A stretch of DNA of 2,574 bases from Escherichia coli (GTDB lineage Bacteria; Pseudomonadota; Gammaproteobacteria; Enterobacterales; Enterobacteriaceae): NCBI RefSeq assembly GCF_003334315.1, contig NZ_QOWR01000109.1; one strand, written 5' to 3'. Every line of letters begins with the position of its first letter. Within the stretch, counting starts at the first letter, position 1. Position numbers and translations under genes: made by a program. The notes under the pieces are model-generated. The model was not told the DNA's origin, did not search any database, and was given only the letters and a program-made list of their open reading frames with translations. Shown one piece after another: positions 1,637-1,851 of this stretch.

Positions 1637-1839
1637 ATAGGGTGATTATTTTTCCTTTATTGGTTCGATATTAAAAATTCTTCTTGTCGTTAAAGGGGAG
1701 TAAAATCTCCGCTCCCCGCTTCTCCTCCTTAAGTAATACTGTGTCATTTACCTCTTTTTTCCTTTGTTATGCATACATCTTGGAGTGTGCATAACATAGG
1801 GTAATTACAAAGGCGGCTTTAAATGCTGCCTTTTATTTT
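1637..1839 (+). ncRNA. Putative structured 5' leader or small RNA (about 200 nt) running from the predicted start site to the terminator hairpin
   Basis: Bounded by the promoter at 1602-1630 and the hairpin plus U-tract at 1809-1839. It contains a G-rich block AAAGGGGAG (1692-1700) that can pair with any of three CU-rich blocks (1706-1710, 1712-1717, 1721-1727), and an imperfect 10-bp inverted repeat (1767-1776 with 1785-1794). No ORF with a credible SD lies inside. I could not match it to any riboswitch class from memory. Confidence 0.3.
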
Positions 1840-1851
1840 GCCCGTTATGCA
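1766..1851 (+). repeat. Three copies of the 8-mer GTTATGCA: 1766-1773 (+), 1788-1795 (inverted, TGCATAAC), 1844-1851 (+)
   Basis: Exact 8-bp matches read directly from the sequence. The first and second copies form an inverted repeat with a 14-bp spacer; the third lies between the terminator hairpin and the 1902 CDS. Candidate operator half-sites or RNA structural elements. Confidence 0.3.
1809..1839 (+). terminator. Intrinsic-terminator-like hairpin with U-tract (AAAGGCGGC-TTTAAAT-GCTGCCTTT then TATTTT)
   Basis: The GC-rich stem GGCGGC (1812-1817) pairs with GCTGCC (1825-1830) including one G-U pair, is extended by three A-U pairs, has a 7-nt loop, and is followed by TTTTATTTT (1831-1839). 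It sits 237 bp after the stop of the 1234-1572 CDS and 62 bp before the 1902 start, so it could terminate block A, attenuate readthrough into block B, or both. Confidence 0.55.

Follow-up and report, generated by a model that had tools for sequence, protein, structure and literature searches.

Known systems and the locus under study

In phage lambda, the terminator tR' is read through by the antiterminator Q, and the sigma-70-dependent pause signal at the promoter PR' reads AACGAT-GGG. The Cro/CI operators of phage 434 have the form ACAA-N6-TTGT; 4-bp half-sites at 6-bp spacing correspond to a helix-turn-helix (HTH) dimer that contacts successive major grooves. P4 immunity involves the CI RNA, in which seqB is complementary to seqA and seqC. 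In Pseudomonas aeruginosa, the small DNA-binding protein AlpA binds at the alpBCDE and PA0807 promoters and thereby lets polymerase bypass one or two intrinsic terminators in the leader ahead of the first gene (PMC7969949, PMC9371919), while the short terminated RNA IsrK of Gifsy-1 acts on its own read-through isoform (PMC4825925). Here, we compare these systems with a locus in a 2,574-nt stretch of Escherichia coli DNA (contig NZ_QOWR01000109.1; "the window" denotes this whole stretch), which derives from a widespread yet apparently uncharacterised family of integrative phage-like elements. A sequence-only reading of the window had drawn attention to three copies of the 8-mer GTTATGCA and proposed that they may be operator half-sites. 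The reading we favour, with a confidence little above even, is that the region forms a terminator-gated leader of the capsid-side operon of the element, in which copies 1 and 2 constitute an RNA hairpin (hairpin A) and copy 3 abuts a separate dyad.

According to this model, a near-consensus promoter at 1602–1630 would transcribe a strongly folded RNA, and most transcripts would stop at a terminator at 1809–1839, which would keep the capsid operon off. The likely role of hairpin A would be to organise the short RNA near its 3' end such that the terminator remains free to form. Expression of the capsid operon would then need read-through or antitermination, and a dimeric regulator, provided by the element or by a helper phage, may act at two dyads that bracket the cassette.

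Promoter, leader RNA and terminator

The genes for a ~112-amino-acid (aa) and a ~70-aa protein are separated by 329 bp in the window and by 450–1000 bp in its relatives. On the + strand, this gap contains a near-consensus sigma-70 promoter (1602–1630) that consists of TTGACA, a 17-bp spacer and the extended -10 element TG-n-TAATAT, i.e. TTGACA-17-TGTTAATAT, with 10 of 12 consensus matches plus the TG. Transcription is predicted to start near A1637 (+ strand) and to yield a terminated leader RNA of ~200 nt (1637–1840, + strand), whose calculated fold (-57.2 kcal/mol, z = -5.15) was not equalled by any shuffled sequence; the read-through RNA folds with z = -5.99. The 3' end of the short RNA would be set by the intrinsic terminator (1809–1839, + strand), AAAGGCGGC-UUUAAAU-GCUGCCUUU followed by UAUUUU, which lies ~60 nt ahead of the first gene within an untranslated leader of ~265 nt. 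The first two genes of the capsid-side operon (1902–2473, + strand) encode products of 70 aa (1902–2114) and 120 aa (2111–2473), and their order is conserved.

The same layout recurs throughout the family, of which loci L001, a 32-kb stretch of E. coli chromosome with an intact copy of the island, L024–L037, L039 and L052–L058 were covered. Thirteen leaders from E. coli, Citrobacter, Enterobacter, Klebsiella, Cronobacter, Dryocola, Serratia and Sodalis share the order of extended -10 promoter, leader of 0.2–1 kb, terminator or terminators, small inverted repeat and ribosome-binding site (RBS), followed by the ~70-aa gene, the ~120-aa gene and the capsid gene. Every related leader closes with an intrinsic terminator, and the longer leaders carry two. 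All 13 are strongly folded (z between -5 and -14), and in each case the + strand is more stable than the - strand. When composition was controlled by comparing each strand with its own shuffles, the window gave z = -6.0 for the + strand versus -2.3 for the - strand, and the + strand was favoured in four of six lineages. Among E. coli copies, the leader is as conserved (0.962) as the flanking genes (0.948–0.974). Searches with Rfam covariance models assigned no family to the window, for which the best matches were far below threshold, or to 11 related loci.

Several of these traits are reminiscent of lambda PR'-6S RNA-tR', namely the strong constitutive promoter, the terminated RNA of ~190–200 nt and the position of the terminator directly before the late genes. 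In addition, the capsid gene of the element likewise belongs to the gpE family. Near +1 to +6, counted from a start site that is itself predicted, the early transcribed sequence of every lineage contains a -10-like hexamer and then GGG, an arrangement that resembles the AACGAT-GGG pause signal; in the window, the hexamer and GGG read TATATA-GGG (within 1631–1650). Unlike the lambda region, the leaders of the element reach up to 1 kb, are very strongly folded and have, in addition to a dyad at the promoter, another one beyond the terminator. Comparison with phage late promoters and lambdoid PR' regions revealed no DNA similarity except for generic AT-rich promoter-like matches (E ~1), and no match to a Q-like gene was detected among the island proteins in PHROGs, NCBIfam and Pfam; Q could be encoded by a helper.

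The AAC-N6-GTT dyad

Judged by its sequence distribution, the conserved operator-like site of the family is not the 8-mer but the dyad AAC-N6-GTT. In the window, dyad 1 (CAAC-AAAAAA-GTTG, 1579–1592) is centred at about -51 of the predicted start, within the direct repeat D1 (1578–1594), whereas dyad 2 (CAAC-TTAAAA-GTTG, 14 bp, 1850–1863) is located after the terminator, 45 nt before the ATG. A total of 22 AAC-N6-GTT sites were found in the 11.7 kb of 16 leaders (1.88 per kb) versus 0.23 per kb elsewhere in these loci, and 300 shuffles of the gaps gave 3.8 ± 1.9 sites with a maximum of 10. Three fixed positions account for 18 of the 22 sites, the remaining four being inside leaders. The first position is centred at -51/-52 (window, L035, L057 and L037), the second at -17 in the promoter spacer (L026, L027, L036 and L058, as well as L033 by eye), and the third, present in 10 lineages (L024 by eye), lies after the terminator at 28–56 nt upstream of the ATG. 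The half-sites do not vary, unlike the centre, which reads TTAAAA, AAAAAA, GCTTTC, AAATAA, AGAAAA or AAGAAC. The outer position is C/G at both sites of the window lineage (CAAC..GTTG) and T/A elsewhere (TAAC..GTTA). Since a site that precedes the transcription start is not part of the transcript and cannot function within that RNA, the dyad is read as a DNA site, probably one for a dimeric protein.

This proposal is in keeping with the architecture of the site. The CAAC/TAAC dyads combine inverted 4-bp half-sites, a 6-bp spacing and a fixed position relative to the promoter, which the 8-mer does not. They thus share with the 434 operators the half-sites 6 bp apart that are invariant around a free centre, but differ from them in half-site sequence and in placement, given that the dyads bracket the leader and terminator, whereas the 434 sites are situated between divergent promoters. 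In L026, L027, L036, L058 and, by eye, L033, the dyad sits between -35 and -10, similar to the AlpA arrangement. In contrast, it is located at -51 and hence not in the spacer in the window, L035, L037 and L057; moreover, the AlpA element (GGGACG-N5-GGTA) is a motif unlike the dyad, and the second, post-terminator dyad is devoid of an AlpA counterpart. Among the called genes of the related loci, none is assigned to the AlpA family (PF05930). As neither a Q or AlpA homologue nor any sequence similarity was found, the cassette belongs to neither the lambda nor the AlpA family. Most likely, it is a terminator-gated late-operon cassette that is analogous, not homologous, to the lambda PR'-tR' and AlpA systems.

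Two side observations concern the surroundings of these sites. In L056 and L058, a local duplication of GCTTTCGT(T/A)ATTAAT adjoins the post-terminator dyad (alignment A6, columns 190–225). In the Klebsiella locus L029 (4866–4893), two 12-bp palindromes, AGGAATGTTCCT and AGGAATATTCCT, are found upstream of the leader promoter and may represent a different operator for a diverged regulator.

Hairpin A and the 8-mer copies

Exact copies of GTTATGCA are present at 1766–1773 (+ strand), 1788–1795 (- strand) and 1844–1851 (+ strand), as had been reported, and the 14-bp spacer described for the first pair is likewise correct. Dinucleotide-preserving shuffles of the window (n = 200) contained a mean of 0.07 matches, and none reached three. 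For the window as a whole, the earlier statement that the triple is unlikely by chance therefore stands. It does not extend to the third copy once the hairpin is taken as given: copies 1 and 2 lie within one longer inverted repeat, so that a single hairpin is counted twice, and the chance of meeting a core-stem 8-mer again elsewhere in the 329-bp gap is then 0.056, or 0.28 if the T-rich stem base is counted. Hence, the apparent significance of the triple stems mainly from the hairpin, and the third copy by itself is only borderline improbable.

The suggestion that the first pair forms a hairpin or a dyad is borne out by the arms of hairpin A (1761–1776 and 1785–1800), which are 88% complementary. 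The hairpin (1761–1800, + strand) consists of a 12-bp core stem, a 4-bp base and an 8-nt loop, and folds with -21.3 kcal/mol (z = -6.6). Its core is a perfect 11-nt repeat, GTTATGCATAC-N8-GTATGCATAAC, in 16 of the 24 E. coli copies, while the window and seven others have G at position 1787, by which a U-A pair becomes U.G; read on the opposite strand, the same change gives a C.A mismatch. Both variable stem positions in the E. coli copies, 1787 in hairpin A and 1849 in the smaller hairpin B described below, toggle between A-U and G.U on the + strand. Stable pre-terminator hairpins also exist in other lineages, with unrelated sequences. An RNA stem, which would be a structural module of the leader, is the better explanation for copies 1 and 2.

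The distance from the end of hairpin A to the terminator is 8 nt in the short form, to which the window and seven more of the 24 E. coli copies belong. It increases to 25 nt in the long form, which carries a 17-bp insertion (ATAGGTACAAGTTAATA; window 1800–1809 compared with L003 and 15 other E. coli copies, i.e. 16 of 24). This distance is thus not fixed. A candidate antiterminator helix between 1761–1770 and 1804–1813, which would take the base of the terminator, was rejected, since its complementarity is destroyed by the 17-bp insertion in the 16 long-form copies.

Copy 3 is located between the terminator and the RBS of the gene at 1902, as the sequence-only reading had noted. It overlaps dyad 2 by two bases and makes up most of the 5' arm of hairpin B (1847–1866, + strand, ATGCAACUU/AAGUUGUAU), which encloses that dyad. 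In six of the 24 E. coli copies, the natural change G1849A converts copy 3 into GTTATACA. As a result, the G1849.U1864 pair becomes A-U and hairpin B and dyad 2 become perfectly symmetric, while the identity with copies 1 and 2 is lost. That copy 3 matches copy 1 exactly is probably due to chance, or else a vestige of a duplication.

Could the 8-mers nevertheless be DNA half-sites for a small HTH protein of the element, such as the 92-aa product of 414–692, that regulates the operon starting at 1902? The model of this product confidently predicts a winged-helix fold, the window taken as a whole would hardly be expected to contain three exact copies, and the reverse complement of the 8-mer, TGCATAAC, matches the extended left half-site GCATAAC that is found at the dyads of L027, L037 and L057. 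In the promoter spacer of L027, even the 9-mer of window copy 2, GTGCATAAC, is present within GCATAAC-TTTTAT-GTTAC. Yet copies 1 and 2 face outward (GTTA-N22-TAAC), none of the three copies has a partner half-site at N6 spacing, and the dyads of the window lineage itself are of the CAAC/GTTG rather than the TAAC/GTTA type. The 32-kb L001 contains only the same three exact copies, none of them near other promoters or in other regulatory regions of the island, and copies with one mismatch are not enriched (9 observed versus 12 ± 3 expected). Words common to the whole family comprise only promoter words, one word from the RBS region and T-rich low-complexity words, but not the 8-mer, which is absent from related elements of other genera. 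Copy 3 is mutated in 25% of the E. coli copies, the variation in the stem retains RNA pairing via G.U, and the lineages with the most similar recognition helix in the 92-aa protein, L029 and L034, are those without the dyad. Overall, we regard half-sites of this kind as unlikely. What remains of the operator proposal is an operator-like element at copy 3, in the form of dyad 2; the data do not support the 8-mer itself as the recognition unit or the three copies as one three-site operator.

Another scenario, to which we assign a slightly lower and clearly small likelihood, is an RNA-RNA switch. In this case, copy 2 would pair with copy 1 or copy 3, in cis within read-through transcripts or in trans from the short RNA, and thus change processing, stability or translation of the long isoform. 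The arms 1773–1795 and 1844–1866 are 74% complementary over 23 nt, and the duplex of copies 2 and 3 (-17.5 kcal/mol) comes close to hairpin A (-19.6 kcal/mol), the cost of enforcing it in the read-through transcript being 5.5 kcal/mol. This pairing is, however, not part of the minimum-energy fold, and in the short RNA copy 2 is locked by the hairpin of -21 kcal/mol. Complementarity between the regions before and after the terminator stands out in the window (z = -4.4) and in L003 (z = -2.9), but not in other lineages (z between -1.0 and +1.5), and the GTTATACA variant in six of 24 copies introduces an A.C mismatch halfway along the 8-bp helix and strengthens the local hairpin B. IsrK of Gifsy-1, lambda sib/tI retroregulation and the P4 CI RNA with seqA, seqB and seqC would be precedents. 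With P4 and IsrK, the locus shares a constitutive promoter and a layout in which a short RNA and complementary repeats around the terminator would decide downstream expression, and the two direct copies and one complementary copy of the window correspond to the P4 scheme. It differs from P4 in that the complementarity is broken in the said six copies and missing from other lineages; moreover, neither P4 nor IsrK exhibits sequence or Rfam similarity to the leader of the element.

Two further explanations invoke replication and packaging. On its reverse strand, window copy 2 reads TTATGCACA, an exact match to the DnaA-box consensus TTATNCACA, and the same 9-mer occurs in the promoter spacer of L027. 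Most E. coli copies read TTATGCATA instead, the family as a whole is not enriched in DnaA boxes (two perfect matches versus 0.41 expected, which 6% of shuffles equal), and a textbook origin-like array with at least seven ACCCCTATCAA iterons beside an AT-rich tract is located elsewhere in the island (L001:12840–13050). A reading of the 8-mers as origin iterons or DnaA boxes is accordingly very improbable. We consider it equally far-fetched that they are cosB-like packaging sites read by a Nu1-like 70-aa product, by analogy with R3, R2 and R1 upstream of lambda Nu1. A morphogenetic operon whose capsid protein is of the lambda gpE family (PF03864) is indeed closely preceded by three sites, of which one is inverted, but a lambda-type cosN was not found in the island, the 70-aa model is of moderate quality without a match to a winged-helix or Nu1-type fold, and the sites are not conserved in related elements. 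Incidentally, the loop of the lambda tR' terminator (lambda reference L038:957–964) also holds TGCATAAC. The two regions are otherwise dissimilar, and this is probably a coincidence.

Points against the proposed terminator-gated leader

Several observations weigh against the terminator-gated leader favoured here. The start site, the termination event and the short RNA are all predictions from sequence. In the composition-controlled comparison, the - strand was slightly favoured in two of six lineages. Covariation is thin, as only one subgroup (Citrobacter/Enterobacter/Klebsiella/Cronobacter) was usable, in which most pairs are invariant and two compensatory double changes occur, so that informative pairs are too few. 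The pairing of copies 2 and 3 discussed above costs only 5.5 kcal/mol, and the equality of TGCATAAC with the extended half-site GCATAAC means that the 8-mers could be orphan DNA half-sites. In addition, L029, L034, L031 and L032 are devoid of both promoter-side and post-terminator dyads, L029 having one internal match. Finally, no antiterminator gene was found among the island proteins in PHROGs, NCBIfam and Pfam, and none of the candidate proteins could be assigned to the dyad.

Candidate regulatory proteins

A candidate DNA-binding regulator encoded in the window is the 92-aa protein (414–692, + strand). It had been described as HTH-like from the sequence, and structure prediction agrees: AlphaFold gives a winged-helix DNA-binding fold with a predicted local distance difference test (pLDDT) score of 92, and the best PDB matches are the DNA-binding domains of CodY, HlyU/ArsR, TubR, MarR and CRP type. 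An assignment of the dyad to this protein by co-variation was tried and rejected, as its recognition helix is most similar in L029 and L034, which lack the dyad. The 1902–2114 product had also been called HTH-like, a view that the 70-aa model does not sustain. It is of moderate quality (pLDDT 70), has no fold match, and the protein has no match in Pfam, NCBIfam or PHROG. The same three collections returned no family for the 120-aa product (2111–2473).

Beyond the window, a 56-aa early protein in L001 (14405–14575; …RTCFHIPDEVFQVLFKEARSRRITVTDYILDMLKRE…) appears ribbon-helix-helix-like by eye; it resembles an antitoxin chain weakly (E = 0.48). The search for solved relatives of this protein and of a 62-aa early protein found none.

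Other features of the leader and gene start

Within the predicted RNA, folding reveals a GC-rich hairpin, GGGGAG...CUCCCC (1695–1717, + strand), that is directly followed by a CU-rich tract, GCUUCUCCUCCUUAA (1718–1732, + strand), which resembles an anti-Shine-Dalgarno sequence of 16S rRNA. Analogous GC hairpins and CU-rich tracts can be read from the sequences of other lineages, and their leaders repeatedly show a CCUCCU(A)AG motif, which in many cases occupies a hairpin loop, with similar motifs in L024, L025, L027, L029 and L033–L037.

Just upstream of the ATG at 1902, the perfect tandem duplication AACAAGGT AACAAGGT (1878–1893, + strand) provides two AAGG motifs. The second (1889–1892) is likely the RBS of the 1902 gene, and the first is predicted to pair with UUACUUU.

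The host element

The window carries a decayed remnant of the island, as evident from two insertion sequences, both of which match ends of enterobacterial IS3-family elements. Positions 1–77 are the reverse complement of the left end of IS3 (IS3-family match), and this insertion cuts the replication-initiator gene, whose C-terminal half persists as the open reading frame (ORF) 62–397, the complete protein in L001 having 222 aa. At the other end (~2476–2574), an IS2-like element takes the position of the capsid gene. A DNA similarity search with the AT-rich core of the window found no relative among phage or plasmid records, and a scan for tRNA and tmRNA genes found none. Of 5426 complete E. 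coli genomes, 455 carry the core in the chromosome, at 80–97% identity. In L001, it lies inside an island of ~12 kb (L001:10269–22700) that adjoins tRNA-Thr. PHROG matches in this island comprise a DNA invertase, a replication-initiator-like HTH protein, a tyrosine integrase, a tape-measure-family match and a tail-fibre/Dit-like protein, and its capsid protein is of the lambda gpE type (PF03864). Five small island proteins, including all of those encoded in the window, had no match in PHROG, Pfam and NCBIfam searches.

Homologues of the capsid protein with 37–78% identity are encoded in Citrobacter, Enterobacter, Klebsiella, Cronobacter, Dryocola, Sodalis and Serratia, at loci with the same gene order as L001. 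Together, they define a family of integrative phage-like elements of ~9–12 kb with a fixed order of genes: small early genes, the replication initiator, three to four small ORFs, the long leader, the ~70-aa and ~120-aa genes, the lambda gpE-type capsid gene, a ~63-aa gene, and genes for a ~615-aa tape-measure-like protein, a Dit-like protein and a tyrosine integrase (often with DUF6538). Terminase, portal and tail-tube genes were not seen in these elements, which resemble phage satellites, and their content is not known to match the gene sets of P4-like elements, PICI, cf-PICI or PLE. A literature search yielded no description of the family, which does not prove that none exists.

Additional features were noted outside the cassette. 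An unannotated 2-kb stretch of L001 contains an origin-like array (12840–13050), in which at least seven (G)ATACCCCTATCAA iterons precede an extremely AT-rich tract, and nearby are ~8 copies of (A/T)TTACACA(G) at 12210–12700 and several of GTGTAAT(T) at 13190–13425. The early operon (L001:14058–14196) has a consensus promoter, TTGACA-17-TGTAATAAT (14058–14086), which is followed by a leader of ~75 nt and a bulged 12-bp hairpin, CACUUUG-AAGCC / GGCUU-G-CAAGGUG with U6CU4, ahead of the RBS of the 62-aa gene. As this operon follows the same promoter-then-terminator design, terminator gating is suggested as a general logic of the element.

Implications

A more far-reaching interpretation, which we consider possible but doubtful, is that the leader, as a large structured regulatory RNA of a class not described so far, gates the capsid operon, and that a factor loaded at the dyad makes polymerase resistant to terminators in the manner of Q or AlpA. 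Such a factor might be the winged-helix protein or be encoded by a helper, the element family would be an undescribed one, and the RNA would be absent from Rfam. Hairpin A and the half-site-like copy 3 would then be lineage-specific switch modules instead of passive structure.

For annotation, it follows that an operator should not be entered on the basis of the three 8-mers. If the terminator-gated leader proves true, a family of elements present in ~8% of complete E. coli genomes would lock its structural genes behind a promoter and a terminator, and this lock would be bracketed by a conserved operator-type dyad and equipped with an unusually large and strongly folded leader RNA. The AAC-N6-GTT-binding protein and the bypass of the terminator would offer a testable handle on how such elements sense helper phages, and a candidate RNA family would be added.

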